NCBI GenBank assembly: GCA_040285855.1
Contig: JAUFOQ010000010.1
Location: 1,178,001 to 1,242,000, forward strand
Source of the DNA: Eukaryota sp. GEM-RC1
Taxonomy: Eukaryota
Direction: 5' to 3'
Length of the DNA stretch: 64,000 nt
A program made the position numbers and the translations under genes. The notes under the pieces are model-generated. The model saw nothing but the letters and a program-made list of their open reading frames with translations, had not been told where the DNA came from and did not search any database. Positions 3,547-60,274 of this stretch are shown piece after piece; within the stretch, counting starts at the first letter, position 1; each line of letters starts with the position of its first letter.

Positions 3547-4941
3547 TCAATTGAGTTGAAATATACCCTCTATATTTACTTTCCGATTAACCGTCAAAGC
3601 CTCTGCCAAAGCCTCGACACCTCTTTCTCCAATAGAGTTTCCAACTAGATCGAAAGTTGTCAATCTACCATTGACTTTTAACGCATCTGCCAGTGTTTTG
3701 GCACCTTTATCTCCAATAGAGTTTCCACCCAGATTAATACTTGTCACTGTAACATTGACTCTTAAAGCTTCTGCCAAAGCTCTGGCACCTTTATCTCCAA
3801 TAGAGTTGTTCCACAGATTAATACTTGTAGCTGTATCATTAACTTTTAAAGCCTCTGCTAATGCTCTAGCACCCCTTGCTCCAATACGATTTCCAGCTAG
3901 GTCAATGCTTGTAATCGTGGTGTTAACTTTTAAAGCATCTGCTAATGCTCTAGCACCTTTATCTCCAATATAGTTTCCACCCACATTAATACTTGTAATC
4001 TTGGTATTAACTCTGAACGCATCTGCCAAAGCTCTCGCACCGTTATCCCCAATGGAATTTCTACTTAGAATAACATATGTAAGTGTGAATTTAGCTTTCA
4101 ACGTCTCTGCCAAAGCTGTAGCACCGTTATCTTCAATTTCGTTGAACATCAGATTGACACTTGTAATTGTAACATTATCTTTTAACAAATCTGACAATAC
4201 GCTAACATCTTCCGCTACAATAGAATTGTGCGCTAAATTGAGACTTGTAACTGTGTTATCAACTTTCAATAATTCAATCAACGGTGAAAACATAGAATAC
4301 CATCCCCTAGGAACAGAAACACGCAAATGAAATTGTTTAAGACGAAGTTGCTCAAAGAATAAAGAAGAGTGGCTGAAAAAGCATAAGTCGCTGTTGTTTT
4401 TTAATTCTAATTCCAAACCTGAGATTTTGTGAGAATAATTGAGCATTTCTTCTTTTTTAAAGAAGCCGCTCACGTAGAAGAATACAGATTGTATATCTGT
4501 TCCAAAGAAAGAAGCAAATGAACAAAGTGGAGGAAGATCTTTTGGAACCACATGGAACGTGTTTGTTTCAAGAAACACCTTGGATGCATGTAGTGCAGAT
4601 TCAAAGAACCGATGGCTTACATAGCCAACTTTCTTAAAGAAAGTATGCATCTTGATCTTCAAAGTAACGAGCACTCGACGAGGTGAAGTACGATTCCCGT
4701 CTAGAGAGTATTTTGACAGATTACACAAGAAACACATATTGATCAAAGTTAGAAGTGTCTGTGGAAAGTACAAGTTATCGGAAGGAGAATCGACAGTCGA
4801 GCACAAAGTCGACGTCGAAAAGGTGTTAGGATTCGAAGATGATATACTAAAACAGGATCCATTACATTCAACAACGTCAGTAAGTGAAACGGTTTCATTC
4901 AATGAACGCCTGCTATCCATTGGATGTTCAGAATGAGACAT
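3547..4941 (-). CDS. LRR family A protein (Ser-rich leader, F-box-like core, 8 x 28-aa LRR)
   Basis: 464-aa ORF with KVNxTxTSIxLxxNxIGDxGARALAxAL repeats; shares FFKKVGYVSHxFFESAL core with six paralogues. Confidence 0.9.
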   Translation of the reverse strand: MSHSEHPMDSRRSLNETVSLTDVVECNGSCFSISSSNPNTFSTSTLCSTVDSPSDNLYFPQTLLTLINMCFLCNLSKYSLDGNRTSPRRVLVTLKIKMHTFFKKVGYVSHRFFESALHASKVFLETNTFHVVPKDLPPLCSFASFFGTDIQSVFFYVSGFFKKEEMLNYSHKISGLELELKNNSDLCFFSHSSLFFEQLRLKQFHLRVSVPRGWYSMFSPLIELLKVDNTVTSLNLAHNSIVAEDVSVLSDLLKDNVTITSVNLMFNEIEDNGATALAETLKAKFTLTYVILSRNSIGDNGARALADAFRVNTKITSINVGGNYIGDKGARALADALKVNTTITSIDLAGNRIGARGARALAEALKVNDTATSINLWNNSIGDKGARALAEALRVNVTVTSINLGGNSIGDKGAKTLADALKVNGRLTTFDLVGNSIGERGVEALAEALTVNRKVNIEGIFQLN

Positions 4942-4977
4942 GTTAGTTTAGGTAGAGGATACTACTATAGTATGTAC

Positions 4978-5361
4978 CAGTGTTTGAAAACCACCCGGGT
5001 GCCACCCGGTGCGTCTGGGTGGTACTGGGCGGATAATCTTTGTCTTACCATCATCTTCAATCCATGACTTCCTCAATACATACTTCGTTGTTCTGAATAC
5101 AATTATTTTAACGGGAGTTATTTCTAGGCTCGGATAGGCTTATATCATCTTATTTATTTATTTTTCAGAGGGTTGTTTTAATCCCAAACCTGTACAAAGT
5201 TCTTCATTGTTAGTTATTTTATATCACACACTGCTAAAATACTTTAAGTTTCATCGTATATGGTGTATAAAGTAGTTATTGCACCAAAACTTTTGTCTCG
5301 TTCTTTAATGCCACACGGTGACCACCCGGGTGGCGTCCAGGTGGAAAATTTTCGAACACTG
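4978..5361. mobile_element. Non-autonomous hAT-like element (CAGTGTT TIR)
   Basis: Ends cagtgtttgaaaa / ttttcgaacactg; subterminal accacccgggtg repeats; flanks ctat-agtatgtac / ctattagtatgtac (imperfect, longer than 8 bp). Confidence 0.75.
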
Positions 5362-5551
5362 CTATTAGTATGTACTTTGATTTTCAGTCCACTAGCAACC
5401 CCCTTTATGCAGTGAACCTTAAAACATAACATGGCCTGCTCGTAGCACGCGTGCTTATATGTATTAATATTGTGTGTTGGCAATTTTTTTTGGGGTACAC
5501 TTCTAACCAGCAGATCAGAATTTGTGATTTGTCCTGTTTTGGTTTGCGTCG

Positions 5552-7175
5552 ATGAAGCATAACACTGAAACAACTACTGATGGTACATCTTCCTTCCACA
5601 GTGAACCTCCTCGATCTTCTTGTAATGTAATAGCTGGCGAAGAACCCTTTGTTTCCACTCTACGCCCAAATCACGAAGAATATGAACTTCCTTCTGAAAC
5701 TCCCTTCACTGCGGAAATCGTGAACGTTGCTTACAGTGCAACAGAAGCCGACATTAGGCAAGCTTTCTCCTCTCTTCCCGTTAAAGAAGTTCGATCTCCT
5801 TCTAATATACCGGGTACGTTTTTTGTCGAATTTCTTGATGTTCAAGGACTCAAGCAATGTTTAGACCAGTACTGGATGTTTATGATCCATGACCGCCCAA
5901 TCCGTACCTATGTAGCCTCTGCTCCTCAGTTTTCTGTTATACCATTGAATACTAGTACCTTCTCTTCTAAACCTAATGCTGAACCTAAACCACTTGAACT
6001 TCGCCCTTTTACATCCCTCCTTCCAATCTCCTTCTAGGTGCTTACGAGTTCCGCAGCCCTTGCTAACTCTCATCAATGTTCACTTGTTGAGACTTATCTG
6101 CAAATCTTCTCTTGAATGGAATAATTATCTGTTTCGTCACCATTTTCTCAACTACTGTCACTTAACGAACGATATCCGTAAATTCTTTAAGAAAGTTGGT
6201 TATACAAGCAAAGGCTTTTTCGAATGTGCTCTACTAGCGACCAAGGTGTTTTTCCAAAGAAACACGCTTAATGTAGTCTCATATGATCTTCCTCAACTTG
6301 TTTCATTTGCTTCTTTCTTTGGAGCAGAAGTTCAATCTGTTTTCTTAGGTGTATGTGAGTCCTGTGATGTTGAAGAATTTCAGAGTTATTCACATGTTAT
6401 TTCAGGATTGGAATTGCGATTAGAGAATCATAATGATTTGGAGTTTTTGAACAAGTCTTCCCTATGCTTTCCACGTCTTAAGGAACTTCATGTTGACGTT
6501 ATTTCTTCTCAAGCTTTGCATTTATTTGATTTGTTAAAGGTTAATGAAACAGTTACATGTGTTCATCTTCGAGACAGCTACATTGGTGGTGAAGGTGTTA
6601 GAGCTTTAGCTGATGCATTGAAAGTTAATACGGCTGTTACAAGTCTTGATCTTAGTGGAAACTCTATTGAAGATAAAGTTGTTAGAGTTTTAGCAGATGT
6701 ATTGAAAGTTAATGCGGCTATTACTAGTCTTGATTTAAGTTATAACTCTATTGGAGATGACGGTGCTAGAGCTTTAGCAGATGCATTGAAAGTGAATACG
6801 ACTCTTATTAGTCTTGATCTGGGTGGAAACTGTATTCAAGATGAAGGTGTTAGAGCTTTGGCAGATGCGTTGACAGTTAATAAGACTCTTACTAGTCTTG
6901 ATCTTAGTGTTAACTCTGTTGGAGATGAAGGTGTTAAAGCTTTAGCAGATACATTGAAAGTTAATGCTTCAATAACCGTCCTTGATTTAAGGTGTAACTA
7001 TATTGGAGATGAAGGTGCCAGAGCTTTTGCTGACGTATTGAAGGTTAACAATTCGGTTACAAGTCTTGATCTGGATGAAAACGCTTTTGAAGATGAAGGT
7101 GCTGGAGCATTGTCAGAAGCGTTAAAAGTTAATAGTACAGTTAAACTAGTTGGACTAAGTTACTTTAATATGTAA
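5552..7175 (+). CDS. LRR family A protein with N-terminal eIF4B/eIF4H-like RRM, 7 LRRs; one apparent +1 frameshift near 6015
   Basis: ORFs 5552-6037 and 5976-7175 are collinear with the uninterrupted paralogue at 49219; removing one C from tccc restores TSSFQSPS. Confidence 0.85.
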
Positions 7176-7380
7176 TTGTAATTTTTTCTTAGTACATTTA
7201 AATATATTTGATATCCTTATTTAAGAACCATAAATCTGAAGTATGTCAATGTAGAACGATAATCACTGACAAATCGAATCAAAATATAAGTTATTATTAT
7301 TATTTACAAAAGGATATATTTCACTGGTTGATCATAAACCTCGTTTTTATAAATGTAAATATTGATTCAGAAAACAACGA

Positions 7381-7569
7381 TATATTTTAATAGGAGCTTC
7401 ATCAAAAATATGTAAAACAGATACAAGTGGACATGGTCATTACATTGCAACTGTTAGGTCTACAGAAAATGCTTATTTGGTGTGGAAAGAATGTGACGAT
7501 AGAGATATTAGTTCAATTACTATAAACACTTATAGTAGAGAAAATTTAGCAATATATGATTTACTGTAG
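7381..7569 (+). pseudogene. Ubiquitin-specific protease (peptidase C19) His-box fragment
   Basis: Manual translation YILIGASSKICKTDTSGHGHYIATVRSTENAYLVWKECDDRDIS fits the USP GHY...W..xDD motif; no Cys-box or start codon nearby. Confidence 0.55.
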
Positions 7570-9151: not shown

Positions 9152-10426
9152 TCATGTCCATGAGTCTTTTGTTTTGAAATTGCAAAACGTTATCAAAAGG
9201 TTAATCTGACGAATTTTAAAGTTACACTGCAGTAATTCTACTAAATGAACTGCACCTACATCACCAATAAAATTAGAACGAAGATTAATCCTGGTGATCG
9301 AAGGATGAACTTTGAATGCTTCAACTAAAGCTCTTGCACCTGTATCACGTATACAGTTGGAAGAAAGATCAATCACAGTAAGAGAACTATGAACTTTAAA
9401 TGCTTCGACCAATGAAATAATGCCCGCATTCCCAATGAAGTTATACCCTAAATTCATCTCAGAAATTGAAGAATTGACTTTTAAAGCCTCAGTAAGTACT
9501 AAGACCCCTGGCATACCAATTGAACAAAATTTTAAATCCATTTTAAGAACCGTGGAATTAACCATCAACATATTGGCTAATGCAATAACACCGTCGTTTC
9601 CAATAGAGTTATTATCAAGAACAAGATTTCTAATTGAAGAATTAACTTTTAACATTTCGGACAACGCTACAGCACCAGTACTGTCGATTGAAATCTTCCG
9701 TAGTTTGAGACAAGTAACTGTGGAATTGGTTGTCAGAGCGTGTGCTAATGAAATGACACCTCCATTACCAATAGAGTTATCACATAAATCAATCTGAGTA
9801 ATTACAGAATTAACCTTCAACACTTCACCTAACACCACAGCACCTTCAGAACTATACTTTAGATTTAGGTGAGTAATTGTAGGATGTGTTTTCAACGCTT
9901 CGGTTAATGTTCTGAAATTGGAATTATCAACATCCACAACAAGTCGTTTAAGATGCAAAAGGTAACAAGGAGAAGATACGTTTAGGAAATTTAAGTCATT
10001 TGGATTCTTCAATTGGACTTTGAGTCCTGCTATAATCTTAGAATAGATGCAACACTTTTCAATTGCAAAAGCCCGTTTTACAAATACAAAGACAGACAGA
10101 ATTTCTGCTTTAAACAGAGAATTGACGGCAGGAAGTAGGGGAAGCTCGACAGAAATCATGGGAAATGTGGTCTCTTTGAAAAACATTTTGATTGCAAGAA
10201 AGGAAGATTCAAAGAAGCGATGACTAGTGAGACCAAAACTGTGAATAAATGAATGGAGTTGCTGTACCAAACAAATAGTTGAGAGAGGACGTACAGGAAA
10301 ACAGGAATCACTATCAAGTATGGGCTTATAAAGACGACGCAGTAAATGGAGATGTATCGCCACTATATGCGGTTGTTCCAAACGGATAGTTTTGGAAGTG
10401 ATGGGAACCGAGATGGAGTCAGACAT
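9152..10426 (-). CDS. Divergent LRR family A protein, about 8 LRRs, short leader
   Basis: 424-aa ORF with IHLHLLR, SHRFFESSFLA core and 28-aa LRRs. Confidence 0.85.
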   Translation of the reverse strand: MSDSISVPITSKTIRLEQPHIVAIHLHLLRRLYKPILDSDSCFPVRPLSTICLVQQLHSFIHSFGLTSHRFFESSFLAIKMFFKETTFPMISVELPLLPAVNSLFKAEILSVFVFVKRAFAIEKCCIYSKIIAGLKVQLKNPNDLNFLNVSSPCYLLHLKRLVVDVDNSNFRTLTEALKTHPTITHLNLKYSSEGAVVLGEVLKVNSVITQIDLCDNSIGNGGVISLAHALTTNSTVTCLKLRKISIDSTGAVALSEMLKVNSSIRNLVLDNNSIGNDGVIALANMLMVNSTVLKMDLKFCSIGMPGVLVLTEALKVNSSISEMNLGYNFIGNAGIISLVEAFKVHSSLTVIDLSSNCIRDTGARALVEAFKVHPSITRINLRSNFIGDVGAVHLVELLQCNFKIRQINLLITFCNFKTKDSWT

Positions 10427-15156: not shown

Positions 15157-16857
15157 ATGTCTAACCCCCAGTCTCCACTCAATAGTAGTCGTCCATCGGA
15201 TGATAGTGTTTCGGTTACTGACGTTGTTGAATGTAATAGAACATCTTCTAGTATCTCCTCTTCCCATCCTAGCGATAGTGCGTCATCCCCTTCGAGCTCC
15301 AATCTGCTGCACTTCCAACAGTCCCTACTTGTTCTCATTCACCTTCATTTTCTACGTCATATGTTAGCACCCCCTCTAGAATGGAATCAGTATGCTCCTC
15401 GTCGTTCTCTCAAAGATTTTATACTCTGGAAGAAAACCATACCTACATTCTTCAAGAAAGTTGGCTATGTCAGCCATCATTTCTTTGAATCCGCTCTACT
15501 CTCAACCAAGGTGTCCTTCGAATCAAAAACCTTTCATGCAACACCTGAAGATCTTCCTCAAATCTCTTCATTTGCTTCTTTCTTTGGAGCAGAGAAACAA
15601 TCAGTTTTCTTACACGTATACAGGAGTTTTAATGTTGACGAATTTCTTAGTTACTCTCATGTAATCTCAGGATTAAAATTGAAACTAAAGTACCACCGTG
15701 ACCTAGAGTTTCTTAACAACTCGGCCTTGTTATTTCCACGTCTTAAGCAACTTCGTGTTGCTGTCCGCGCTTCTATTTCTATGTCGCTTATAGAATTGTT
15801 GAAAGTTAATACTACGGTTACATTTGTTGTTCTGTATGGAAATTTAATTGAAGATGAAGGTGCTAGAGCTTTGGCAGATGCGTTAAAAGTTAATGTTACA
15901 GTTACAAGTATTAATCTTGGTGAAAACTCTATTTTTGATGAAGGTGCTAGAGCTTTGGCAGATGCGTTAAAAGTTAATGATACAGTTACAAGTATTAATC
16001 TAGGTGCCAACTTTATTGGCGATGAAGGTGCTAGAGCTTTGGCAGAGGTGTTAAAAGTTAATGATACATTTACAAGTATTAATCTAGGTGACAACTCTAT
16101 CACATTTGAAGGCGCTAGAGCTTTTGCAGATGCTTTAAAAGTTAATACTGTAGTTACAAATGTTGTTCTGTATGGAAACTCAATTGAAGATGAAGGTGCT
16201 AGAGCTTTGGCAGATGCGTTAAAAGTTAATGATACAGTTACAACTATTAATCTATTTGACAACTCTATTGGTGATGAAGGTGCTAAAGCTTTGGCAGATG
16301 CGTTAAAAGTTAATAGTACAGTTACAAGTATTGGTCTTGGTGTGAACTCTATTACATATGAGGGTGCTAGAGCTTTGGCAGATGCATTAAAGGTTAATAA
16401 TGTTGTTACTAATGTTGTTCTGTATGGAAACTCAATTGGACCTGAAGGTGCTAGAGCTTTGGCAGATGTGTTGAAAGTCAATACTGTAGTTACAAGTATT
16501 GATCTGGGTTCATGTCTTATTGGACCTGAAGGTGCTAGAGCTTTGGCAGATGTGTTGAAAGTCAATAATGTAGTTACAAGTATTGATCTGTGTTCAAACC
16601 ATATTGGACCTGAAGGCGCTAGAGCTTTGGCAGATGTGTTGAAAGTCAATACTATAATTACCAGTATTAATCTAGGTGACAACTCTATTGGTGATGAAGG
16701 TGCTGGAGCTTTGGCAGATTCGTTCAAAGTTAATGATACAGTTACAAGTATTAATCTTGGTGAGAACTCTATTACATATGAAGGTGCTGAAGCTTTGTCA
16801 GATGCGTTAAAAGTTAATAGCACAGTTAAAATAGCTGGAGTCCATCAACTCAATTGA
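15157..16857 (+). CDS. LRR family A protein (Ser-rich leader, 12 LRRs)
   Basis: ORF 15079-16857; start moved to ATG 15157 (MSNPQSP) by comparison with paralogues at 4941 and 35056. Confidence 0.9.
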   Translation: MSNPQSPLNSSRPSDDSVSVTDVVECNRTSSSISSSHPSDSASSPSSSNLLHFQQSLLVLIHLHFLRHMLAPPLEWNQYAPRRSLKDFILWKKTIPTFFKKVGYVSHHFFESALLSTKVSFESKTFHATPEDLPQISSFASFFGAEKQSVFLHVYRSFNVDEFLSYSHVISGLKLKLKYHRDLEFLNNSALLFPRLKQLRVAVRASISMSLIELLKVNTTVTFVVLYGNLIEDEGARALADALKVNVTVTSINLGENSIFDEGARALADALKVNDTVTSINLGANFIGDEGARALAEVLKVNDTFTSINLGDNSITFEGARAFADALKVNTVVTNVVLYGNSIEDEGARALADALKVNDTVTTINLFDNSIGDEGAKALADALKVNSTVTSIGLGVNSITYEGARALADALKVNNVVTNVVLYGNSIGPEGARALADVLKVNTVVTSIDLGSCLIGPEGARALADVLKVNNVVTSIDLCSNHIGPEGARALADVLKVNTIITSINLGDNSIGDEGAGALADSFKVNDTVTSINLGENSITYEGAEALSDALKVNSTVKIAGVHQLN

Positions 16858-22943: not shown

Positions 22944-25000
22944 TTAACCCATTTTATTTACCCAAATAATAGAATTAAAAAACAACTTGTGTCCATCAGT
23001 TGAACTAGGCCAATTAAATAAACCACAGTTACCGTCACTTGAACAACTAAAACACCCAAACTCTACAAGTCTACCTCCACCAACTTCTTTCTTTGCAATT
23101 AAAGGAATTCCATAGTTAACAGTAGCTAACAGAGTTGCATTAACAGACTTTTGAGTTTGAAAACCACAGTTAGTAGAGAAACTGTTTACATTAAGAAAAA
23201 TAGGATCATTTGGTAGAGTTTTTACCATGTCACGTTGGGTTTTTTGATTGGTAAGATAACCAAACGAATCCCCAACTCCATTAAAGCAAGAATTACTAAA
23301 TCCTCCTTTAATATAACTTGGACAACTATTAAACAAAACCAAACCCTTACCTTGGTTTAAAAACTGGTCAAGAAATTGACCCGGACAAAGACACCAGAGA
23401 CTTTCAACAACTAAAACATCATAGTTTTCAAGTTCTTCAAAGCTTCGTACTTTACTGGTGAATGAATTAATTGAAAGATTAACATGTCCCCAATTTTCAG
23501 CAAAACCTTTTTTAATTTTGTCAGTGAGATCGCTTACATAATCTTGATACCAAACACAAACTCCAACATTAATTGTTCTTAAAGTAATCTCCCTGCCCAA
23601 GAATTTTCGACCAATTACTTGAATTTCATCTCCAGCAAAATTTTCAAGGACAACTTTTTCCAACCAAATTGTCCTGTTTTGATTTGAGAAATTTTCTAAA
23701 TTAGTTCTCGATAATAAATTACCAGGAATAACTGGAATTTCGGGAACACTTTCAAAAGAGAAATTGTTGATTACTTTTGACAATAATTCTACATTGGAAT
23801 GTTCAACAAAAGTACCAACTAGAGCAAGAAATTCTTCTTCAGTTAGTGAATTAAACTCTAGTTTTGCAAACATTAAATTGGTTAATTCAGGGTTATGATT
23901 TTTAATCCACCTAAAGTGAGAAATTGAAATAGTTTGAGAGTTATTGATGAAATTATTCAATAATTTGAGTTTTAATTCTTGCGGAATTTCAAGTACCACG
24001 AGTTCTTGTAATTCTGAGAAATTGACAGAAAAATCATTGGAAATTTGAGCAATTTTTAATATTTTCTTGGATTTTGAAGACACATCAAACATATCAACAT
24101 CAATTAAATCTTTCTTCACCAATTTGGACATCAATTTCAAATGAAAAGACGTTGCACTTTCTTCAATGAATTCAAAGCTTTCAATAAATGATTGTTTAAA
24201 GCTTTTTAAAACCTCTAAAGCATTTTCAATAAACTCATCGCCTTTGTCTCTCAACTCTTTGTTAAAAGTTAGAGCACAACTAACGGTATTTCCAGTAGTA
24301 AGATCAACAATCTTTTGAGATGATTCTCTAACCAAGTTGTTGATCAAGTCATAAAGAATTGTCTGAGTATTGACGAGAACTTCAGCAACAACCTTTTCTA
24401 CTTCTTCTTTATTTCCAGAGACTTTCGAAGTTGCATTGGACAATGAGAGGTGGAGCTCTTTGACTTGGAGTTCAAAGTCTTCTTTGGCTTGTGAAAGAGG
24501 AATCAATTCCTCACAGTGTTTAGCGTGACCCATTGAAGGTCCACACGAGTCGCATATAGATACCAAACACTTAGTGCAGAAGTGTTCGAGGGGTTTAGAG
24601 AGGTGGCGAGGGCATTTGAAAGAAGAGATTGTGGGTTTTTGGTTGATATGAACAACTGAGTGGGTTCGCAAGGCTTTTGGTCGGTGAATAGCAGAAGAAC
24701 AGTCTTCACAGTAACTGGCATCACAGTCAGCACAGAAAAGAGTGGCAGGAGCTTCTTCACATTCAAAACAGATGGCCGCATCTTGCTTTGAGTTTTTAGC
24801 AATTTCAATAGCGTCACGTAAAGCGATGTTTACACGGAGAGGCGCGGAAGGTATTGGTTCTCGACATACGGGACAAGAAGCCGCTTCTTTTTGTTTTAAC
24901 CATTGCACAAGACATTTGTCACGGCAAAACTGTGGCCACACGGAAGCGTGGTCGGATTCTCCATTAGTTCTTCGCATACGTAACATTCAAGATGAGACAT
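22944..25000 (-). CDS. TRIM-like E3 ligase: RING, B-box, B-box, coiled coil, C-terminal alpha/beta domain; one apparent frameshift in the RING
   Basis: ATG 25000 gives MSHLECYVCEELMENPTTLPCGHSF; one extra base at the A4 run 24926-24929 joins it to CRDKCLVQW..CPVCR, completing a C3HC4 RING. Then CFECE..CADC..CEDC..H..H and CPRH..CTKC..CDSC..H..H. Confidence 0.88.
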
Positions 25001-27272: not shown

Positions 27273-27305
27273 CTCGAGTTTTAGTTTGTATTGTTATGTA
27301 CCTGT

Positions 27306-27427
27306 TGTTAGCACAGCAAGTGTTAACACGTGTTCTAGTAGTGAACTGTAGCATTATTTTACTTAGATTATTCTCTCCCCTTATAAAGGTACCGTCCTTT
27401 TCACTTTCAGCCTTAAACAAGGCATCA
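27306..27427 (+). repeat. 5' LTR (122 bp)
   Basis: tgttagcac...ggcatca; identical by eye to 33382-33503. Confidence 0.97.
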
Positions 27428-27470
27428 ATAGCTATTGGCCGTACACTAAGGCCTATCTAACCTAATCTGT

Positions 27471-33381: not shown

Positions 33382-33503
33382 TGTTAGCACAGCAAGTGTT
33401 AACACGTGTTCTAGTAGTGAACTGTAGCATTATTTTACTTAGATTATTCTCTCCCCTTATAAAGGTACCGTCCTTTTCACTTTCAGCCTTAAACAAGGCA
33501 TCA
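33382..33503 (+). repeat. 3' LTR (122 bp)
   Basis: Identical to 27306-27427. Confidence 0.97.
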
Positions 33504-42338: not shown

Positions 42339-43674
42339 CTAATATTTTACTTCAACAACTCTATTGACTTTCAGCGCCTCTGCCAAAGCTCTAGCACCTT
42401 CATCTCCAATAGAGTTAGAACTCAGTTCGATAGTTGTAATTGTTGTGTTAACTTTTAACGCCTCTGCCAAAGCTCTAGCACCTTCATCTCCAATAGCGTT
42501 AGACCTCAGATAAACACATGTAACTGTAGTATTAACTTTCAACGCCTCTGCCAAAGCTCTAGCACCATCATTTCTAATACAGTTGTAACTCATATTAACA
42601 AGAGTAACTGTATCATTAACTTTCAACGCCTCTGCCAAAGCTCTAGCACCTTCATCTCCAATATAGTTAGCCTGTAGATCAATAACAGTAACTGTAGCAT
42701 TAACTTTCAACGCGTCTGTCAATGCTCTGACATCTTCATCTCCAATAGAGTTATAACTGAGAGTAACAATTGTAATTGTAGCGTTGGTTTTTAACAATTC
42801 AATGAAAGCAATAAAAATAGAAGAATGAACACGCACATCAAGTTGCTTAAGACGTGGAAAGAACAAGGAAGACTTGTTGAGAAACTCCAAGTCATTGTGA
42901 TTCTCTAATTCCAATTCTAATCCAGAAATTACATTATCATAACTAAGAAATTCTTCAACTTTAAAGCTATCGTACACGTGTAAGAAAACAGATTGAATCT
43001 CTGCCCCAAAAAAAAGAAGCAAATGAAGAGAGTTGAGGAAGGTCATCAGGAATGACATGAAACGTGTTTGTTTGAAAAAGCACTTTGGTTGCTAGTAAAG
43101 CAGATTCGAAGAAATAATGACTTACATAACTAACTTTCTTAAAGACTGGTAATAAATCTTTTTTCAACTTGTAGAGATCGCCGCATCTATATTCATGACA
43201 TTCAAGAATGGACTTGAGCATACTACTCAGCATATGAAAATGAATGAGAATCAGCAAGGACTGTTGAAAGTGTATGCTGTGAGTAGATTGGAACGAGGTC
43301 GTCAAAGGGAGAAGTTCAAGTGGTTTGGGTTCAGTATTAGGTTTAGAAGAGAAGGTACTAGTATTCAATGGTTTAACAGAAGACTGAGAAGCAGAGGCTA
43401 CATGGGTACCTGGCATATTACTAGGAGAACGAACTTCTTTAACGGGAAGTGAGGAGAAAGCTTGAATAATGTCAGCTGCTGTTGCACTGTATGCAACGGT
43501 GGCGATTTCGGCAGTGAAGGGAGCTTCGAAGGGAAGCTCATATTCTTCGTGGGATGGACGTGGATTAGAAACGTGTGGTTCTCCACCAGTTCTAGAACTG
43601 AAGGAACGAAGAGGAGTATCGCACCCTTCAAGGGAAGATGTAACATCAGTACTGTTTCCAGTGTTAGGTTCCAT
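42339..43674 (-). CDS. LRR family A protein with internally deleted RRM, 5 LRRs; one apparent +1 frameshift
   Basis: ORFs 42967-43707 and 42339-43058 join at the A8 run 43008-43015 (FASFFGAE in paralogues); ATG 43674 (MEPNT) matches MEHNT / MKHNT. Confidence 0.85.
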
Positions 43675-45479
43675 CACAGTACACTCTGCAAAAAGGAGGC
43701 AAAACAAATTATAATTGCACTCATTGACCTCTTTTATCTAAAAAAAAGTGAGTCAATAACCGCAGAACAAAGGGTTTTACTGTATTACGAAAACATTGCA
43801 GTTAATAACCCAAAAACCCTTTACAATTTGTAAAAACCTACCAGCAAAAAAACTGGTTATATGTCTTCTTTAATGTGACGTTTTGTACTTAAAATGAGAG
43901 TAACCAAGCAACTATCAATTAGTACTAATTATTGAATTGAAGATGTATACTTGTCAAGTCTTCGACTGTGGACACTGTGTATTTTACCACTTTAAATTTG
44001 AGTCAATGAATCACACAGGGCAGGGGCTCTATAAGAATTGTAAAATAGGTAAGGAACATTCACATTGTTGTCTAATAACAGTTCTTTGTTTGGATACCAG
44101 CCGTCAGAGGCATGTAAGAATTGGGACCATAAGGCACTGTCAAGATCATAAAACATAGGAAAATATCTTGCAGTCAGAAACTCTCGAGTGAAGCGGTTGT
44201 TTCGTCTAACGTGTTTCGAATAAATATGGCCAGCATAAATCTGGCCAGCAGATAAAATCTGCCGATAGAGTACTACAATTGTGCATCAGACCACTGCTTC
44301 AATTTCACACGTGTAGAGAAGAATTCCATGTAAAAAACACCGAGCTGGTGAAGTCCGAAAAATAAATAAAGATCAATTCGTCCCCTTTTGAACAGTAAGA
44401 TGTTTCCTTTCATGAACATTGCCTAGTTGTTGATCAAATTTCATGATAGAGGCGTTGCTATGATAACACATGTTTATGATATAGAAAAGATGCTGAAGGA
44501 TAAAACATCACTATCTACTATATTGGAAGCGAAGCTAACGTTTAAAATAAAGGTCATCAAAAAGACTTTCTGGGTCGTAATAAGGATGTTTTTGGGAACC
44601 AAAGAAAAACAATGTGACCAAAAATGACGGGAAGGAGGAGTCGAATCTATGGGTTAATAACATAATACGAACTAAAAGTAACTGCGTTGCGAAATGACCA
44701 GACACATCACATTAGCAGATATTTTTAGTGTGTATTAATCTATGTAATATATGTTTCTAGATATTGAATATATTAAACATCATCTAAGTGCCTACCACTA
44801 TGAATCTTCGCAAGCTAAGTTTCCTATTACATTGTTGTGTTATATGTTCTTGATCGATAAAGTGATAGCTATAAACAGACGCTATTGATTTGATAAATTC
44901 CTGCATTAGTTTAAAGTTGAGAGTGATGGTTTGCATCTTGTTACGTTGACTTATCTACGACAACCATATAAAATCATCAATAAATGTTATTTACAGTGAT
45001 GGGTGTTATTTTAATGATGACAAGTTTAAGGTTTTTCAGTTTATTACATTTATAAATCACTGTATTTTGTCTAAGGGATTCTGTATCGGTATCAGTGTGA
45101 AGTATCAGTGGTAAGCAGCTTTAAAGCAGTTGTCGTAGACTTATTGATTGGAACAGAAAGTTAGTGAAAGCATTATTAAGATATCCGACATCTTTTGCCA
45201 CAAGGTATAGATCCAAAGTAAATATATTCTATTTACCAGATTTAAGACCCACCTAGACGCCTTTTATTTACTCTTACAAATACAACCTATCATCAGACCC
45301 ACCTAGACTGTACTAATCCAAATTTAATTTCTTGCCGACGTCTCTCGATATTCCTTCTTCACTAAACTATGAATTGTCCTCTTACACGATCCAGCAACAG
45401 TGTTGCAGTTGCCAACAGTCACTATTTATATATATAGTGATTCTGTTGGCGTGGATATTGCTTCGTTTTCCTTTTTCCA

Positions 45480-45914
45480 TATAGTGATCCAACAACTGCT
45501 GAAGAAGTTTTTTGTCTACAATCATTTTTGAAGTGTTATAATATCAAAAAGCTTGTTCTTGACAACTGTACGTTTACTGACGAAGCAATAACTACGTTAT
45601 GTGATTTAATTAGCACCAATAGAACATTGACTTCTATAGACATCAGCGAATGTAGTCTGTGTGATGACGATTTCCAACTAATCATACCCGCACTATCTAT
45701 CAATTCTAGCATTGTAGAGCTTAATTTCAGTCACAACGCTTTAGGTGATTCGAGTGTCAGTCAACTAGTGAACCTAATGAAAGCGAACAGTACAATTAAG
45801 AAGATCAATCTTAGTGACAATACATTCACCATTGAAGGAATGACGACTTTAGCCACATCTTTTAATGAAAATTCTTTCATTACTGAGATCATTTTTAATG
45901 AAGAAAATGAATGA
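45480..45914 (+). pseudogene. C-terminal fragment of LRR subfamily B
   Basis: TAEEV..LQSFLKCYNIKKLVLDNCTFTDEAITTLCDLI matches the super-repeat of 57179-60274; N-terminal part missing. Confidence 0.7.
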
Positions 45915-49218: not shown

Positions 49219-51228
49219 ATGGAGCATAATACTGGAGAAAGAACTGTTGTTATATCTCCCTCCAGAGGCCGCGATCCTCCTCATCATTCCTTCAGTTCTA
49301 AAGCTGGCGAAGAACCCCATGTTTCTACCCCACGTCCATCCCACGAAGAATATGAACTTCCCTCTGAGGCCCCCTTCATTGCCGAAATCGCCACCGTTGC
49401 AAACAGTACAACAGAAGCTGACATCAAGCAAGCTTTCTCCTCTCTTCACGTTAAAGAAGTTCGATCTTCTAGTAATATGCTAGACACGTTTTTTGTCGAA
49501 TTTCTCGATGTTCAAGGACTCAAGCAAAGTTTAGATAAGTACTGGATGTTTAAGATCCATGGCCGCCCTATCCGTACCTATGTAGCCTCTGCTCCTCAGT
49601 CTTCTGTTGAACCATTGAATACTAGTACATTTTCTTTTAAACCTAACGCTGAACCTAAACCACTTATCCCTTTGACTTCCTCATTCCAATCTCCTTCCAG
49701 TTGCTTACACTTTCAGCAATCTTTGCTGATTCTCATTCATTTTCATATGCTGAGTAAAATGCTCAAGTCTATTCTTGAATGTGATGAATATAGATGCGGC
49801 GATCTCCACAAGTTGAAGAAAGATTTATTACCAGTCTTTAAGAAAGTTGCCTATTTAAGCCATCATTTCTTGGAATCTGCTCTTTTAGCAACAAAGGTGT
49901 TTTTTAAAACAAACATTTTTCATACCATCCCTGAAGATCTTCCTCAACTCTGTTCATTTGCTTCTTTCTTTGAAGCAAATATACAGTCTGTTTTCTTACA
50001 TGTCAGCGGGAGCTTTGATGTTGAAGAATTTCTTAGTTATTCTCCTATAATTTCAGGATTGGAACTAGTATTAACGAATCATAATGACTTGGAGTTTCTG
50101 AGCAATTCTTCTAGTTACTTTCCACTTCTCAACCAGCTGCATGTGTCTGTTGATCGTTCTATTTCTGTATCATTTATAGAATTATTGACAGAAAATACTT
50201 CAATTACAAGTATTAATCTCAAGGACAACTCTATTGGGCATGAAGGTGTCAGAGCTTTGGCAGAGGCATTAAAAGTTAACACTACAGTTACAAGTATTGA
50301 TCTGAGCAAGAACTTTATTGGAGATGAAGGTGCTAGAATTTTAGCAGATGTGTTGAAAATTAACACTACAATTTCAAATATTAATCTGGGGGACAACTCC
50401 ATTGGTGTTGAAGGTGCTAGAGCTTTAGCAGAGGTTTTGAAAGTAAATACTGAAGTTTCAAGTATTAATCTTTGCAAGAATTCTGTTGGCGCTGGAGGTG
50501 CTAGCGCTTTGGCAGAGGCGTTAAAAGTTAATGTTACTGTCAAAAGTATTAATTTGTGGAAGAACTCTATTGGAGCTGAAGGTTTTGAAGCTTTGTCAGA
50601 GGCGTTAAAATTTAACACTTCAGTTAAAGATATTAATTTGTTTAACAACTCCATTGGAGCTGCAGCTGTTAGAGTTTTTGCAGATGCTTTAAAAGTTAAC
50701 ACTACAATTACAAATATTAATCTGGGGGACAACTCTATCGGAGCTGTAGGTGCTACAGCTTTGGCAGAGGCGTTAAAAGTTAACACTACAATTACCAGTA
50801 TCCACCTCAGTATGAACTCTGTTGGAAATGAAGGTGCTACAGCTTTGGCAGAGGCGTTAAAAGTTAACACTACAATTACCAGTATTGGTTTGATCAAAAA
50901 CTCTATTGGAGATGAAGGTGCCAGATCTTTGGCAGAGTCGTTTAAAGTTAACACTACAATTGCAACTATTAATATGGACTTTAACTCTACTTCTGTTGAA
51001 GGTGCGAGAGCTTTTGCAGAGGCGTTGAAAGTTAACACTACAATTACGAATATTGGCATGGTGAATAATTCTATTAGAGCTGAAGGTGCTAAAGCTTTGG
51101 CAGATGCTTTAAAACTTAATCGTACTGTTTCAAGTATCTATTTGAGGTACAACTCTATTGGATCTGAAGGTGCTAAAGCTTTGGAAGAAGCGTTAAAAGT
51201 CAATAGCATTGTTGAAATAGACTATTAG
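49219..51228 (+). CDS. LRR family A protein with intact eIF4B/eIF4H-like RRM, 12 LRRs
   Basis: Uninterrupted ORF: RRM about 49357-49590, family core, then 12 x 28-aa LRR. Confidence 0.93.
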   Translation: MEHNTGERTVVISPSRGRDPPHHSFSSKAGEEPHVSTPRPSHEEYELPSEAPFIAEIATVANSTTEADIKQAFSSLHVKEVRSSSNMLDTFFVEFLDVQGLKQSLDKYWMFKIHGRPIRTYVASAPQSSVEPLNTSTFSFKPNAEPKPLIPLTSSFQSPSSCLHFQQSLLILIHFHMLSKMLKSILECDEYRCGDLHKLKKDLLPVFKKVAYLSHHFLESALLATKVFFKTNIFHTIPEDLPQLCSFASFFEANIQSVFLHVSGSFDVEEFLSYSPIISGLELVLTNHNDLEFLSNSSSYFPLLNQLHVSVDRSISVSFIELLTENTSITSINLKDNSIGHEGVRALAEALKVNTTVTSIDLSKNFIGDEGARILADVLKINTTISNINLGDNSIGVEGARALAEVLKVNTEVSSINLCKNSVGAGGASALAEALKVNVTVKSINLWKNSIGAEGFEALSEALKFNTSVKDINLFNNSIGAAAVRVFADALKVNTTITNINLGDNSIGAVGATALAEALKVNTTITSIHLSMNSVGNEGATALAEALKVNTTITSIGLIKNSIGDEGARSLAESFKVNTTIATINMDFNSTSVEGARAFAEALKVNTTITNIGMVNNSIRAEGAKALADALKLNRTVSSIYLRYNSIGSEGAKALEEALKVNSIVEIDY

Positions 51229-54450: not shown

Positions 54451-56531
54451 ATGAACTTTGCAAGCCCTGATACCGCATCAGACAGTGGTGATTACTCCAT
54501 CTATTCCTCATCGTATAGTTTACCTTCTGTGGAACATAAAGACTTTCTAGATGTCACCAACTTTTCAACAAATGACGACATTAACACAGAATCTTTGTCC
54601 AAGGAAGATCTTCACCACTGGGTAACAGTCTTTCATCCCCAATTTGCCGAACTAAACGAAGATACAACACCTGTAAACGAATCTTTTGACGATACACTTT
54701 CAGTTCTACATCATTACACTACAGTATCTCTTCTCAAGAACAACATCAATGATCCGAACCTACTTGAAGCTGATATCTCTGACTTATCAAAAGATCACAG
54801 TGTGAGAACATCCTGGGTTTCTAGGCTATTCAATAACTTCTGCTTTCAAAAGCTTAGCAGTGTTCCCTTCTCCAAACGACTTCCCTTCTTTCTTTCCTCT
54901 ATCCACTCTTTCATAACTGCTCACAGAATTTTATCTCAAAATATCGAGTCTAAGAAACAACTAACAAGAGACAACAAACCGGTCTTTCTACCTGAGTCTT
55001 TGTTGATTCAGGCCTTTCAACACGTGATTTGCCATGCACTTAACACACGCGACTTGTATCCACCACCTTCCTTTTCTACACGTTATTCTTCCACGATGAA
55101 CCTTGCCGTCGTCAGTCAACACTTCCTTTTTTCTTTCCTTCAAGGACTCATTATCTCTATCAAAGGAACTTCATCCACTCTGATGAATTTTATTCAAGTT
55201 GTATGTAATTTTAATGATCCTTCATTGGTTAGTAAACGAGTAGTAAACTTGTTGGATCTTGCCGCCAAAAAGACAGTTTTAACAACTAATTCTCTTACTT
55301 CTTCTGCATTTGTTGGCTTTTCCAATGTTAATTCAGTGATTCTTCGGTGCACAGACCCTTTTACTATCCCAAAAGGATTAGAGTTTCTACCAGGAAACAT
55401 TAGTCATTTAGAATTATTACCAGACCCTTCGGTTATGACATATGGTTACGTGATTGATGACGTGACAACTGATGATCTCTTAAATGACGAATTTGCCTTG
55501 GATGAAGTTATTGACGGTCCTTTGTCAATCATTAATTCTCTGCCATTTAACAATCTAAACTCCTTGAGTATGGGATATTACGATAACTATTACTGTCATT
55601 TTCAACATTTACCTCTTCTTGAATCCTTAACGATTCAGACGATGATTTCTGCTGATCTCAGACACTTAAGGAATCTGGTAAGATTGAAGATTGAGTTTGT
55701 TGTTGGTGTTGAAGATGATGAATTTACTATTGATTTATCTGAATGTAAGAAGTTAGAGTTTCTTTTTGCAGATTTTAGAAAGTCTTGGCATACATGTACC
55801 ATTGACATAACCAACAATAGACGACTCCGGGAGTTATATTTGTGTCGACACTGTATTGTTCAAATTAATGATGTTTCCCATAGTGATTGTTTATATCCCC
55901 TTTTAACAGATGTTGGAGTCGATCAGACTGATCTTATTCTACCTTTTTGAAAAGATGCCTAACGTTGAGTATTTAGAAGTAAATACTCTGCATAATCAAG
56001 AATTAGACAGTATTCCTGTCATGAACCACCTAAAAAGACTTTGTATTAGTCCTCGTATTAGGTCACCAGGTTTCTCAATTTCCAATGTTGGTCGTTTTCC
56101 TCGCCTACAACAAATGTCTCTATACGGATATTGCGCTAGTGCTCATTTCATCACAATTGATGAACCCCTGGCAATCAAGGAGTTAACACTATTTGTTGAC
56201 TTTCACAAGGCGAGTTATATACGAATCATTGACAGTTGTCCTTATCTGTTGAGTCTTGTTATTACATTTACAGACTTTTTGTTCACTGTACAGCTATCTT
56301 ACTCAACGGGTACTTGAGAACCCTCAGTTAGTCGTAAAACCCTCTGTATTTTTACCTGATGACGTGACCTCTGAGTTTTACCTTCTTTGTTCAAAGAGTT
56401 TGCTGGCTCAATGTGTTGCTAGTAAGTTGAAGATTTTGTTCATGTTATTTGATAATTATGAATCTGGGTTTTTTACGTGGTTTGATTTATTGAAAAAGAC
56501 CCACTTTTTCCGACAAAGAATGTACTTTTGA
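54451..56531 (+). CDS. F-box-like plus degenerate LRR protein; two apparent frameshifts
   Basis: LPESLLIQAFQHV...MNLAVVSQHF at 54988-55125; LxxLxI repeats (LPLLESLTI, LRNLVRLKI, LRELYL, MPNVEYLEV, FPRLQQMSL); three overlapping ORFs joined near T-runs at about 55945 and 56278. Confidence 0.7.
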
Positions 56532-57112: not shown

Positions 57113-57178
57113 TACTCTCCAACCATCAATAAATAAATGTCATTGAATTTTTTTCTCAGTCTCTGCTTTCAATCATAT

Positions 57179-60100
57179 ATGGACAAACGTTCTTGTTTCT
57201 TCTGTAAAGCCGTCGATGCTTGTCTCATTGAAGTCTGTTGCGATCGCTATGTTTGCTCCCTCAAATGCCGAGATCAATGGAGATCAAGTTGTCTCTGCAG
57301 TTCATGTACAATATCTACTTCGACATGTCCATCTGGTTCCGATGTTCTTCCTGACTCCGTTGCCACTTCTTCTCCCCCCTCTCCTTGTTCGATCTCTCCT
57401 TCTTCACAGTTCATCCACTTGCAGCAATCTTTAGTATCTCTCATCAGTTCTCACATGCTTACAAATCTTTGGAACTCTTTTCCTATCTATAAGCAAAACA
57501 ACCGCTCTCGCCACCGTCGTTTAACCAACAAACTGCCTACATTCATCCAACAAGTGGGATATGTTAGTCACCGCTTCTTTGTAGCTGTTTTCATTGGAGT
57601 TAAAGTGTTCTTTGAGTCAAATACACTTTCTGTTGATGTCTACGATCTCCCTTTTCTTCTTCCCATAGCCTGTTACTTCCAAGCAGACGTACCATCTGTT
57701 TCCTTGATTGTGGATCCATCCTGTAAAGTTGAAGAACTTCTTGATCACACTTCAAGAATTACTAGACTAAGGATAAATGATGACGTCACCAATTTGACCC
57801 ACTTACTTGACAGCTCTTCTCCTCTCTTCTTACCTGGACTAAGATGTATTGATTTTACCACAGACTCAGAGTCTGAGTTAACTACCTTCTGTGAAGCTCT
57901 ATTGTTGAGCACGACTATTGTTGAATTAAGTATAACTCAACTACAAGGTTTCTCATCAGACATTGTTTTCACTCTTGTAGAAGTATTTAGTTCAGTTCAC
58001 ACATTTAGAAAGGTTAAACTCGCATCGTTTCAAAAACTTTATGGTGAAGATGAACTCAAGTCTCTGTTTACTGCTTTAATGACAAATACCAAACTTAAAT
58101 CAATTGATTTGAATCTTCCTTATCCAGGTAATTTAACTCTTATGGCTCCTCTTCTGTCAATGCCTGAGCTTCAAACTATCGTGGTACCCCCTTACTATTA
58201 TAATTATTATGATGGACAACCCTTTCCACCAGTTTTTCATGGCCTTAGGAACAATTCTTCTCTACATCAAATAACGTTTGTCCAGAGTGTTATCAATACT
58301 GAAGAAATCTCCCATGTTTTAAATTCTAATTCATCTTTGAAAAATTGGACATTTTACAATGTAGTTTCACGTATTTTCATAATTTTCTGGAAGAAAATTC
58401 TTCATTATTAGAGTTATCACTTTCGCAGCGTCAGGGGTCAAAAAAAATCAAAACATCTTTACAATGGACTAATGGAAATGATTCAAACTAACACTAGTTT
58501 GATGGTGTTAAATCTGGATGTTTCTTGTTTAAGATATCTACAAATTCAAAAAAATCCTCAAAGCACTTGAAGCTAATTCTACTCTTCGGAAAGTTAGTTT
58601 TCCTGGGATACGATTAAAACTGACTTCATTAATTGCAGTTTTTGAAATTTTATCTCCTCTAAAGCTGCGGTCAACTGTAGACATTTCTCCTTATTATATC
58701 GACACTAAAAAAGGTGTGTTTTGTTATTCTTCTCAAGAACTTGTCCGCTTGACTTCCGAAGAAGTCTCAACTTTACAGTCATTTCTAGAGTCTTTTACTA
58801 TCAAACATCTTACTCTTAATAATTGTCGTTTTACCCACGATGTAATAATTGCTTTGTGTAATCTAATTAGGGCCAATAATTCATTGATTTCCATGGACTT
58901 AAGTTACTCTAAACTATCTAATGACAATATCATCAAATTTGTTCATGCACTTGAATTCAATTCTAACTTAAAAGAGTTCTTCTCCATAATATTTGTAATG
59001 AATTTAATCCACTTCTAATTATTTTTAGATGTGCTGCCATTCATCAATCACCAATATTCTTTGAAGTTTCTCCTGCTTCTGTACACCTTTCTATTGGCAC
59101 TATTTGTTATCAAAACAGATTATCTGATGATGATTTAGTCTTACTTTTAGAAGCTTTAAAATCAAATGTTCCTATTAAAAGTGTAGTTTGTCCAGGATTA
59201 AGACGACCAAGTCTAAAAACCTGTTTAACATTACTGGAGATTCATTCCTTAAACAAATCTGTAATCAGTTTTGATTGCTTTCCTCGTTGTATTGACTTGG
59301 ATAATGGAATAGTTGGTTTTTCTCCATCTAAGTCTATTCCGGTAACTGTAGAAGAAATCTCAGCTCTACAGAATCTTTTGGATGTTTTCAATATCAAAGA
59401 ACTTTCCCTCAACAATTGGCGTTTTTCCAGTGATGCAATCACTAAGTTGAGTGATTTAATTAGGCTATCTACTTCATTGACTTCTGTTGACTTCAGTTGT
59501 TGCAATTTATCTCCTGAACAAGTTTTTACATTAATCAGTGCCTTCGAATCCAATTCTTGTTTAAAAACGGTAGACATCTCCAACTGCGGAACTAACTTAA
59601 ATAATCTTTTGGAAATCTTTCAACTAATTTCAACCGAAGAACTGTCACCTAAATTAAAGTGTTTTCCCCATGTTATTGATGTTTCTCTTGGTTATATTCG
59701 TTATGAACATCACGTCACCAGTGATGACTTGGTATCACTTTTAAATGCCTTAAAGTCAAATGTTCCGATTAATCGTGTTGAATGTCTTGGTTTAATTAGT
59801 TCAAAATTTAGTGATCTTCTTGTTCTATTAGAGATTCTTTCCATCAACACGTCAGTTATCGACCTTGACTTCTCTCCTCATCTTTTAGATATCGAAAATG
59901 GAGTGTTTTGTTTTTCTCCCAAAAAAACCGTTACATTGACTTCCGAAGAAATCTATTCTTTGAGTTCTTTTTTACAGAGATTCCGTATGAAAGAGCTTTC
60001 ATTGATCAAATGTCATTTTACCAATACTACTATCACAAATTTATGTGATTTAATTGTAAACAATGATTCATTGATATCTTTTGACTTTAGTAAGATTCGA

Positions 60101-60274
60101 ATATCTGTGCATAATATTTCTTATTTACTTGAAACTCTTAGTAGTAAGACTTCCTTACGTCATCTTAATCTTAGTTATCCCATCCTGGAAGGTAATAGTC
60201 AATCAACTCACGACACAATCGTCAAAGAAGGTCGCTTGGAAAACATGTTTAAAAAAAGTTGCTTCGGTTTTTAA
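57179..60274 (+). CDS. LRR subfamily B protein: Cys-rich N-terminal finger, family core, three ~198-aa super-repeats; several frameshifts (gene or pseudogene)
   Basis: MDKRSCFFC..C..CC...CSLKC....CLCSSC; IHLQQSLV..VGYVSHRFF core; TxEE(I/V)S motif recurs at 58758, 59351 and 59945. Confidence 0.75.

Follow-up and report, generated by a model that had tools for sequence, protein, structure and literature searches.

How single-celled eukaryotes recognize intracellular invaders is largely an open question, and a cluster of related LRR genes in Eukaryota sp. GEM-RC1, a free-living, anaerobic, culturable skoliomonad metamonad, raises it in a concrete form: do these genes encode adaptors that recognize proteins and pass them to the ubiquitin system? 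We analyzed a stretch of 64,000 nucleotides (the window), for which a preliminary description had proposed such a repertoire. We favor, at a probability of roughly 0.5, a tandemly expanded family of likely degenerate F-box-LRR substrate adaptors that would feed an SCF ubiquitin ligase.

The seven type-A paralogues of the preliminary description, their repeat counts, and their layout (N-terminal part, then core, then LRR array) were all recovered by tblastn and repeat counting. They share a core of ~175 aa, 37-59% identical to that of A4 with tblastn E values between 1e-27 and 1e-60, and their arrays of 28-aa repeats comprise 8, 7, 8 (one short), 12, 8, 5, and 12 units in A1 through A7. A1 (3547..4941, minus strand; 464 aa), A4 (15157..16857, plus strand; 566 aa), and A5 (33692..35056, minus strand; 454 aa) are intact and consist of a Ser/Pro-rich tail, a cap, and repeats, with irregular LRRs preceding the regular 28-aa units in A1. 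A public gene model that fuses A5 with a MULE/SWIM remnant (35898..36518, minus strand) is likely an annotation artefact. In A3 (9152..10426, minus strand; 424 aa) the tail is nearly missing, and about eight more divergent repeats follow the cap. An eIF4H/4B-type RRM precedes the cap in A2 (5552..7175, plus strand; RRM at about 5681-5920), which carries a single 1-nt frameshift near 6004-6017, and in the intact A7 (49219..51228, plus strand; 669 aa; RRM at 49351..49590, plus strand). A6 (42339..43674, minus strand) has an RRM with a 90-nt in-frame deletion, as well as a frameshift near 43010, within a T8 run.

Two type-B genes are present, as had been described, but not as they had been delimited. 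The sequence at 57179..60274 (plus strand), with a Cys-rich N-module, a cap, and long irregular LRRs in ~200-aa super-repeats, is one gene broken by four frameshifts at 58340-58980; an intact 1,636-aa paralogue is collinear with it at 69-79% identity, ruling out two separate genes at 57-60 kb. The second is the 3' part of a gene that extends beyond the window (63111..64000, minus strand). A type-B LRR fragment lies at 45441..45911 (plus strand). Searches of Pfam and PDB gave the Cys-rich module no identity. The gene that had been called F-box-like (54451..56317, plus strand; open to 55950, then continuing in another frame) does not keep that name: its 54451-55950 portion had no Pfam match and no other homologue, and its weak cap-like motif matches the family cap at E 0.006, making it at best a distant relative.

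A profile search of 1.84 billion proteins with the core returned 189 clusters at 50% identity, bearing out the expectation of a large copy number. The family has about 200 members, found so far in one protist genome: all 65 named matches and all 30 looked-up representatives (95/95, on 13 contigs) are labeled Eukaryota sp. GEM-RC1, these labels covering 95 matches, with 100 listed and 39 unlisted representatives outside that set. More than 1% of the organism's genes belong to one young LRR family. The clustering and copy variation described for the locus reflect local tandem expansion and variation in repeat number between paralogues; the window's own contig carries 29 of the 67 core matches, and on a quick family tree of 158 rows, a clade of 22 rows, 20 of them placed, has 18 on a single other contig. 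No relatives of the core were found in viral contigs, and genome contigs gave generic LRR matches only, in Nitrospina-type genomes. A horizontal origin from giant viruses was rejected, the matches being limited to the generic repeat.

The AlphaFold2 (AF2) model of A4 (pLDDT 88) comprises a disordered stretch (residues 1-43), helices at 55-70, 84-105, and 107-123, and a solenoid from residue 125; the proteins are accordingly predicted to consist of a three-helix cap followed by a ribonuclease-inhibitor (RI)-type LRR horseshoe, and are likely cytosolic. The 84-bp repeats follow the shared helical cap within uninterrupted reading frames, and Pfam LRR_6 was assigned to 63/65 family proteins. The shared core does not hold up as a domain of its own, since irregular LRRs, continuous with the solenoid, make up two thirds of it in the model. 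In keeping with the proposed lack of NACHT or NB-ARC domains, a P-loop motif was found in 0/198 family proteins, and no such Pfam family was among those listed for window and family proteins. Structure prediction thus upheld a cap in front of an RI-type solenoid, but the cap modeled by itself was of low confidence: when the core alone was folded, residues 1-78 had pLDDT <50, and searches gave no E <0.001 and a best Z of 6.9.

Whether the cap (in A4, residues 55-123; 15319..15525, plus strand) is an F-box bears on the choice between the adaptor reading and its strongest competitor, in which the cap is a mere capping or dimerizing helix bundle, or an F-box past Skp1 binding, and the proteins are stand-alone RI-like binders that sequester or inhibit their targets with no ubiquitin step. 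The cap consists of two conserved blocks flanking a variable insert of ~25 aa, which lies between predicted helices 1 and 2; the predicted helices are longer than usual for an F-box. An F-box begins with Leu-Pro and ends with Val-Cys/Ser-basic-Trp, a signature visible in the 23 Pfam-defined F-boxes that we fetched. Against these, the best-scoring registers of the two blocks were the expected ones, which pair the first helices of cap and F-box and place the near-invariant cap Ser (98%) on the Cys/Ser before F-box helix 3. Position, three-helix order, and register point toward the F-box, as do the ESM Atlas neighbors of the cap, headed by F-box clusters (0.86-0.87; the best named matches, 10/10 in one clan, serving as a lead only), and the persistence of the cap's conserved residues in all subfamilies even though the LRRs behind them change type.

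The statistical tests, by contrast, all fall on the side of the capping bundle. The two-block register score was equalled or beaten by 13/150 column shuffles and 8/150 block shuffles. No Pfam F-box appeared among the families listed (25 of 84) for 65 proteins, among all 11 families for 37 caps, or in 44 further proteins; hhalign of the cap against the F-box set gave a probability of 0.5% and a score of 10.1 (shuffles 7.4 +/- 1.5, max 12.8); an HMM built from the 23 F-boxes found no cap; and profiles of the core and of the cap, run against PDB, yielded 0 matches at E 10. The signature Pro position holds Gln in 80% of caps and Pro in 14%, and the signature Trp is replaced by Phe. The nearest folds to the full A4 model are ribonuclease inhibitor (Z 40, rmsd 2.6, 407 aligned) and the NOD2/NLRP LRR domains (Z 33-38), while F-box proteins were not singled out, FBXL2 (Z 27.8) and FBXL17 (Z 26.9) matching through their LRRs. 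In addition, the relevant passage of PMC7029713 gives Skp1 and Cullin1 as not detectable in Giardia, a member of the sister clade, which also suits a cap without a ubiquitin partner; the 120 matches listed, of 6,684, did not include the Skp1 of GEM-RC1 itself. The F-box-like identity originally proposed is suggested by position, register, and Atlas neighbors, without a significant profile match. We consider F-box ancestry probable and Skp1 binding today slightly less likely than not, and rate the capping bundle as the less likely explanation, although one that deserves to be taken seriously.

The repeats themselves combine a constrained scaffold with two highly variable positions. Over 681 repeats, positions 13-14 reach 3.6-3.8 bits, against 0.1-0.9 at scaffold positions; in the model this pair of residues follows each strand and lies on the face predicted to bind. 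In an analysis of 59 repeats from seven genes with a shared synonymous rate, scaffold sites had an omega of 0.07-0.3, positions 5, 9, and 11 had 0.9-1.2, and positions 13-14 had 1.3-1.6 (p 0.015-0.15, with no correction for 28 sites), the last falling to about 1 with site-own synonymous rates. The repeat scaffold is thus shown to be under purifying selection, but this does not extend to all LRR positions, and of the site-model expectation the hypervariability stands (omega 1.0-1.6) while positive selection at 13-14 is borderline and not established. Repeats are gained and lost inside genes, as 34 of the 59 (12/12 in A4) have their nearest neighbor within the same gene.

These measurements bear directly on genomic drift, the second alternative, under which unequal crossing-over in a repeat-rich genome has multiplied copies that mostly do little, and the variability of exposed sites is relaxed constraint. 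An omega of about 1 at the variable sites under the stricter test is what drift would give, and a core omega of 0.29-0.54 in 20/21 pairs (the remaining pair being saturated) and the many short models fit it as well; drift has also been treated as a serious explanation of the birth-and-death expansion of F-box/BTB families in Parachlamydiaceae, in the part of PMC4209131 concerned with them. Frameshifts in three of the nine family genes with a full or near-full N-terminus-to-LRR span in the window, together with the partial loss of the A6 RRM, point the same way, but homopolymers of 4-8 bases, 6% of coding bases in all, contain 5/7 frameshifts, the pattern expected of long-read assembly errors. 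The strong purifying selection on the scaffold, the focusing of variability on two positions while exposed helix positions are more conserved, and an RRM omega of 0.37 (CI 0.19-0.85; A6 RRM rows excluded as out of frame) count against drift, which we regard as unlikely.

The N-terminal modules had been described as swappable, which overstates the case. The window holds only three kinds (Ser/Pro-rich tail, RRM, and Cys-rich), and family-wide 129/181 N-termini (71%) are short Ser/Pro-rich tails and 16/181 are under 15 aa. A combinatorial receptor system that kept shuffling modules from one core to another could draw on the four folded or semi-folded kinds found family-wide, on RRM distances that track the core poorly (Mantel 0.18-0.32, not significant, vs 0.51, p 0.007, for cap and LRR core), on an A2-A7 dS of 0.28 in the RRM vs 0.64 in the core, and on RING-like rows that form one clade in 0/200 bootstrap trees, but single clades were not rejected (p-AU 0.90 for RRM cores, 0.63 for RING-like cores) and the RRM label clusters on the tree (3 changes vs 9.8 when shuffled), leaving it very improbable. 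Most likely, modules were gained rarely and then inherited, with no routine swapping. The RRM, present whole or as a remnant in 14 family proteins, is more conserved than the core; its profile has eIF4H and eIF4B as all of its top four PDB matches (best E 2.3e-6; for the A7 RRM, phmmer E 8e-4 and profile E 2e-6). Scanning metagenomes with the RRM alignment turned up a single weak match, 34 residues long. The RNA-stacking aromatics of the family's RRM are substituted, and by analogy it may resemble an integrated decoy.

Among the neighbors outside the family, the TRIM-like gene (22944..25000, minus strand; RING, B-boxes, and coiled coil; zf-B_box E 3e-12), whose RING is interrupted near 24929, where a T4 run carries a frameshift, and the USP (ubiquitin hydrolase) His-box remnant (7366..7566, plus strand; Pfam UCH E 5e-4, below cut-off) are both present as described. 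We dismissed them as a sign of ubiquitin coupling, as they are single genes and show nothing. Transposons include a Ty3-type LTR retroelement (27305..33503, plus strand) that encodes protease, RT, RNase H, and integrase and whose two ends carry the same 123-bp direct repeat, as well as a MULE/SWIM remnant (25020..26227, plus strand) with 83-bp inverted ends that are 95% alike; with the MULE/SWIM piece beside A5, they substantiate transposon sequence but not its density, as mappable transposon proteins cover 8.9 kb, at least 14% of the window, in a genome reported to be 48% repetitive. That repetitive fraction, a core omega near 0.4, and the 44/198 models below 300 aa are compatible with relaxed selection and drift.

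On the adaptor reading, tandem duplication would have expanded the family to about 200 in one metamonad genome, and the cap, as a degenerate F-box, would provide the contact to the SCF ubiquitin ligase. The LRR horseshoe would bind varied, probably foreign, proteins through the variable residues after each strand and hand them to the ligase for destruction. That the proteins defend the cell against viruses, endosymbionts, or prey-borne proteins is a tentative extension, and a role for the RRM of one clade as bait, or as a tether of those members to the translation machinery, is more doubtful. Quite unlikely, and built by analogy, is the fullest version, an NLR-free immune repertoire of ~200 degenerate F-box-LRR sensors in which the stripped eIF4H/4B RRM of one clade would bait translation-hijacking viral or endosymbiont proteins; the decoy strategy of plant NLRs would then have arisen anew on a ubiquitin-ligase adaptor in a protist. 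With its variable surface defined and a translation-factor domain captured, the family of this culturable protist supplies concrete candidates for testing. Should the cap bind Skp1, a strongly altered F-box is at work in a lineage in whose sister group some species have lost SCF; if it does not, the family adds to the unexplained LRR blooms of protists.

Birth-and-death expansions of LRR/F-box genes are known, and the family is apparently a lineage-specific variant of them not described before. Caenorhabditis F-box expansions were reportedly treated by Thomas in 2006. As the pertinent section of PMC8665587 has it, these families reached hundreds of copies by species-specific tandem duplication. 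Like plant FBX/FBXL families, they join an adaptor motif that is conserved, at the N-terminus, to a substrate-binding domain that changes fast, as would the GEM-RC1 family. Caenorhabditis and plant F-boxes, however, pass Pfam and bind Skp1, whereas the GEM-RC1 cap fails Pfam, contains the insert of ~25 aa, and mostly lacks the signature Pro; RI-type LRRs of 28 aa, rather than FTH/FBA, form the substrate domain.

Some plant NLRs carry integrated domains, in which a host-protein domain is fused to an LRR protein. The GEM-RC1 family likewise is an expanded LRR family that bears a host-type domain, an eIF4H/4B-type RRM with an altered RNA-binding face, but unlike plant NLRs it has no NB-ARC/NACHT or signalling domain, shows one integration rather than many, and has a putative bait role. 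RI-type proteins with 28-residue LRRs (ribonuclease inhibitor, NOD2/NLRP, axonemal, and giant-virus) share the solenoid (Z 33-40), and viral LRR proteins reach up to 40% identity, but none matched the cap, and so widespread a repeat class is silent on function or donor. The Parachlamydiaceae F-box/BTB proteins are, as PMC4209131 presents them in that part, secreted bacterial effectors, whereas the GEM-RC1 family is host-encoded and no bacterial or viral relative of its core was found in the genome and viral contigs searched. Among protists, the LRR genes of Tetrahymena, in the account given in the LRR sections of PMC6564038, form species-specific expansions of hundreds to thousands of young, clustered genes with retroelements nearby, their repeat number shifting by unequal crossing-over, and a recognition role has been proposed for them without proof. 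The GEM-RC1 family is similarly lineage-specific, clustered, and changing in repeat number, but where the Tetrahymena genes of that account have 90-bp exon repeats with phase-2 introns, those of GEM-RC1 have 84-bp repeats in uninterrupted frames behind a shared cap.

Six-frame translation and self-search of the window identified seven type-A LRR genes (A1 to A7, left to right), each with a common core of about 175 aa and an array of 84-bp repeats. The cluster of LRR paralogues announced in the preliminary description is real, consisting of these genes, type-B genes (a second subfamily with long irregular LRRs) and a fragment (45441-45911), and its type-A repeat counts agree with our recount (8, 7, 8 with one short, 12, 8, 5 and 12). 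Five of the seven (A1, A3, A4, A5 and A7) are intact; a single frameshift interrupts each of A2 and A6, and the N-terminal module of A6 carries a 90-nt deletion. A single type-B gene with four frameshifts occupies 57179-60274, collinear with an intact paralogue of 1,636 aa, and another extends past the window end. Type-B members (57179-60274 and the family protein P0079) contain super-repeats of about 200 aa made of mixed LRR units and reach 1,636 aa; the type-B Cys-rich N-module had no Pfam or PDB match. Seven frameshifts were inspected, one of them in a TRIM-like gene and six in the family. Five fell within runs of 4-8 identical bases, which make up 6% of coding bases, and the other two lay near such a run. 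Since the assembly is long-read based, many of the frame breaks are likely assembly errors.

A search with the A4 core retained 67 proteins out of 577 candidates; all 65 named matches were labelled Eukaryota sp. GEM-RC1, and three agreed with the window at 98-100%. A profile of the seven window cores, searched against 1.84 billion proteins, recovered 189 clusters at 50% identity, 161 of them at E 1e-10. The best 150 clusters included 130 new ones, and 30 of 30 representatives looked up from these bore the same label, a single-organism restriction within a protein library that may contain no sister species. According to the main text of PMC11316075, the organism is Skoliomonas sp. GEMRC, a free-living anaerobic metamonad with a 33.5-Mb genome (21 contigs, 48% repetitive, 14,268 proteins). 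The preliminary description had named a low genome-wide copy number as contrary to its proposal; set against 14,268 proteins, the count places the family above 1% of genes. Members occupy at least 13 contigs, and the family grows locally: the window's contig holds 29 of the 67 A4-core matches, and a single other contig holds 18 of the 20 rows that could be placed from a starred clade of 22 rows.

In an AlphaFold2 model of A4 made with 65 sequences (pLDDT 88), a disordered tail (1-43) is followed by helices at 55-70, 84-105 and 107-123 and then by a single solenoid that starts at residue 125, so that the core, as modelled, is a three-helix cap plus three irregular LRRs. The best fold match was ribonuclease inhibitor (RI; Z 40, rmsd 2.6, 407 aligned); the other best folds came from the LRR domains of NLRs and from axonemal LRR proteins. 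The proteins comprise 105 with at least three regular repeats, 49 long type-B and 44 short forms. None of 198 has a P-loop, in line with the lack of NACHT or NB-ARC proposed in the preliminary description. Hydrophobic stretches (at least 2.0; 7 of 198) and tails passing a crude signal filter (2 of 136) are rare, which makes a cytosolic location likely.

The cap's three predicted helices, its two conserved blocks flanking a variable insert and its place in the protein would fit an F-box. A set of 23 F-boxes, taken from Pfam PF12937 matches in three giant-virus bins (23 of the 24 had a locus), served for comparison, and both blocks scored highest against it in the expected register. ESM Atlas neighbours, as a lead only, placed F-box families nearest to the cap (0.86-0.87) and the longer core at 0.90 to F-box clusters. 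We favour, at a probability of about 0.5, cytosolic adaptors that would bind varied targets through the LRR face and recruit Skp1-Cul1 through the cap, leading to ubiquitylation of the target, with birth-and-death evolution under changing biotic pressure. No F-box was among the Pfam matches listed for the family proteins, nor did core and cap alignments match PDB profiles; hhalign gave the cap a probability of 0.5% against the F-box set, and 13 of 150 shuffles reached its two-block score. The F-box signature Pro occurs in only 14% of caps and is little enriched in type B (9/46 vs 11/96). Skp1 and Cullin1 are reported as not detectable in Giardia in the sections consulted of PMC7029713, and those of PMC8516963 do not mention them. 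The FBXL definition applied here is that of PMC12475580. We call the cap F-box-like and do not class it as an F-box. Stand-alone binders, resembling the RI that the model matches best, are a possible if rather doubtful reading.

Variability, calculated from 681 repeats, peaked directly after the strand, at positions 13 and 14 (3.6 and 3.8 bits); it was 2.6-2.7 bits at positions 9 and 11 (strand) and 5, 19 and 23, and 0.1-0.9 bits at scaffold positions. These variable positions line the concave binding face in RI-type LRRs. A codon model of 59 repeats from the seven window genes gave omega values of 0.07-0.3 for scaffold positions. At 13-14 the values were 1.3-1.6 (p 0.015-0.15 without correction), or about 1 with site-own synonymous rates, estimates that conversion among repeats could bias. 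Purifying selection on all LRR positions, which the preliminary description had named as contrary to its proposal, is not what these values indicate, and they do not establish positive selection. Drift, to which omega near 1 could point, is an unlikely explanation of a pattern that includes a constrained scaffold. Repeats resemble one another more closely within a gene (73%) than otherwise (68%), and arrays therefore grow inside genes.

Among 181 proteins with a cap start, N-termini were short Ser/Pro-rich tails (129), almost absent (16), Cys-rich (13), scored RRM (12), other (10) or a transposon-fusion model (1); two RING-like modules are counted as Cys-rich and a third as short. A broader motif found an RRM or remnant in 14 family proteins. 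Single clades were compatible with the RRM cores (p-AU 0.90, 11 rows) and the RING-like cores (p-AU 0.63), both on short alignments of limited power. Lower dS in the RRM and a weak Mantel correlation hint at module exchange; neither is significant. With 129 of 181 short tails and neither clade rejected, the proposed "swappable" domains find little place, and routine swapping of N-modules is very improbable. A Sina-like RING-type N-module (for P0114, Pfam Sina_RING E 8e-4) occurs in three family proteins encoded on two further contigs, P0042, P0114 and P0026, and would make these E3s on their own.

By its profile, the RRM belongs to the eIF4H/eIF4B type, a new observation here; all four significant PDB matches were eIF4H or eIF4B (best E 2.3e-6). 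Conservation among 12 copies was higher in the RRM (72%) than in irregular LRRs (60%) or cap (55%), and omega between A2 and A7 RRMs was 0.37. At positions that we take to be RNP2 and RNP1, all 12 copies have Lys or Glu for the RNP2 aromatic and a replaced first RNP1 aromatic, which suggests a protein-binding or bait module.

The neighbours include a TRIM-like gene (22944-25000, minus strand; Pfam B-box E 3e-12), whose C-terminal 270-320 aa matched nothing in Pfam or PDB and in part, by eye, presumably resembles a BACK domain. A CCDC81-like gene with two HU domains (1-1290, minus; Pfam E 1e-11, 4e-9) is truncated by the window start, and a Mob1/phocein piece follows (1347-1823, plus; Pfam E 1e-14); a USP remnant and MULE pieces lie among the family genes. 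A Ty3-type element (27305-33503, plus) has identical 123-bp end repeats, as in a recent insertion; its pol has several frame breaks despite these ends, and the end repeat recurs, 91% alike, at 61583-61707 (minus). Decayed LTR-retroelement pieces occupy 17400-19100 (minus), 12899-13411 (minus), 36955-37803 and 46421-48270, with 37292-37683 and 46563-46950 83% alike in inverted orientation. Direct 82-bp repeats at 20078-21186 (93% alike, about 1 kb apart) probably delimit a small mobile element. Two copies of a 49-bp element (94% alike) are present, one upstream of A2 (5321-5369) and one, in the opposite sense to the gene, upstream of A3 (10483-10531).

The family is apparently undescribed so far. 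The literature searched, mostly outside subscription papers, described neither such a family nor an LRR protein with an eIF4B decoy, and the available part of the solenoid survey 10.64898/2026.10.28.762692 does not treat it. The main text of PMC11316075 lacks "leucine-rich" and "F-box", and in five supplementary files none of the six terms sought occurs, a mention in the remaining supplements being possible. Giant-virus LRR proteins have their repeat class in common with the family. In the sections consulted, Tetrahymena is described with young, clustered LRR gene blooms of proposed recognition role (PMC6564038), and Caenorhabditis (PMC8665587) and chlamydiae (PMC4209131) with F-box blooms.
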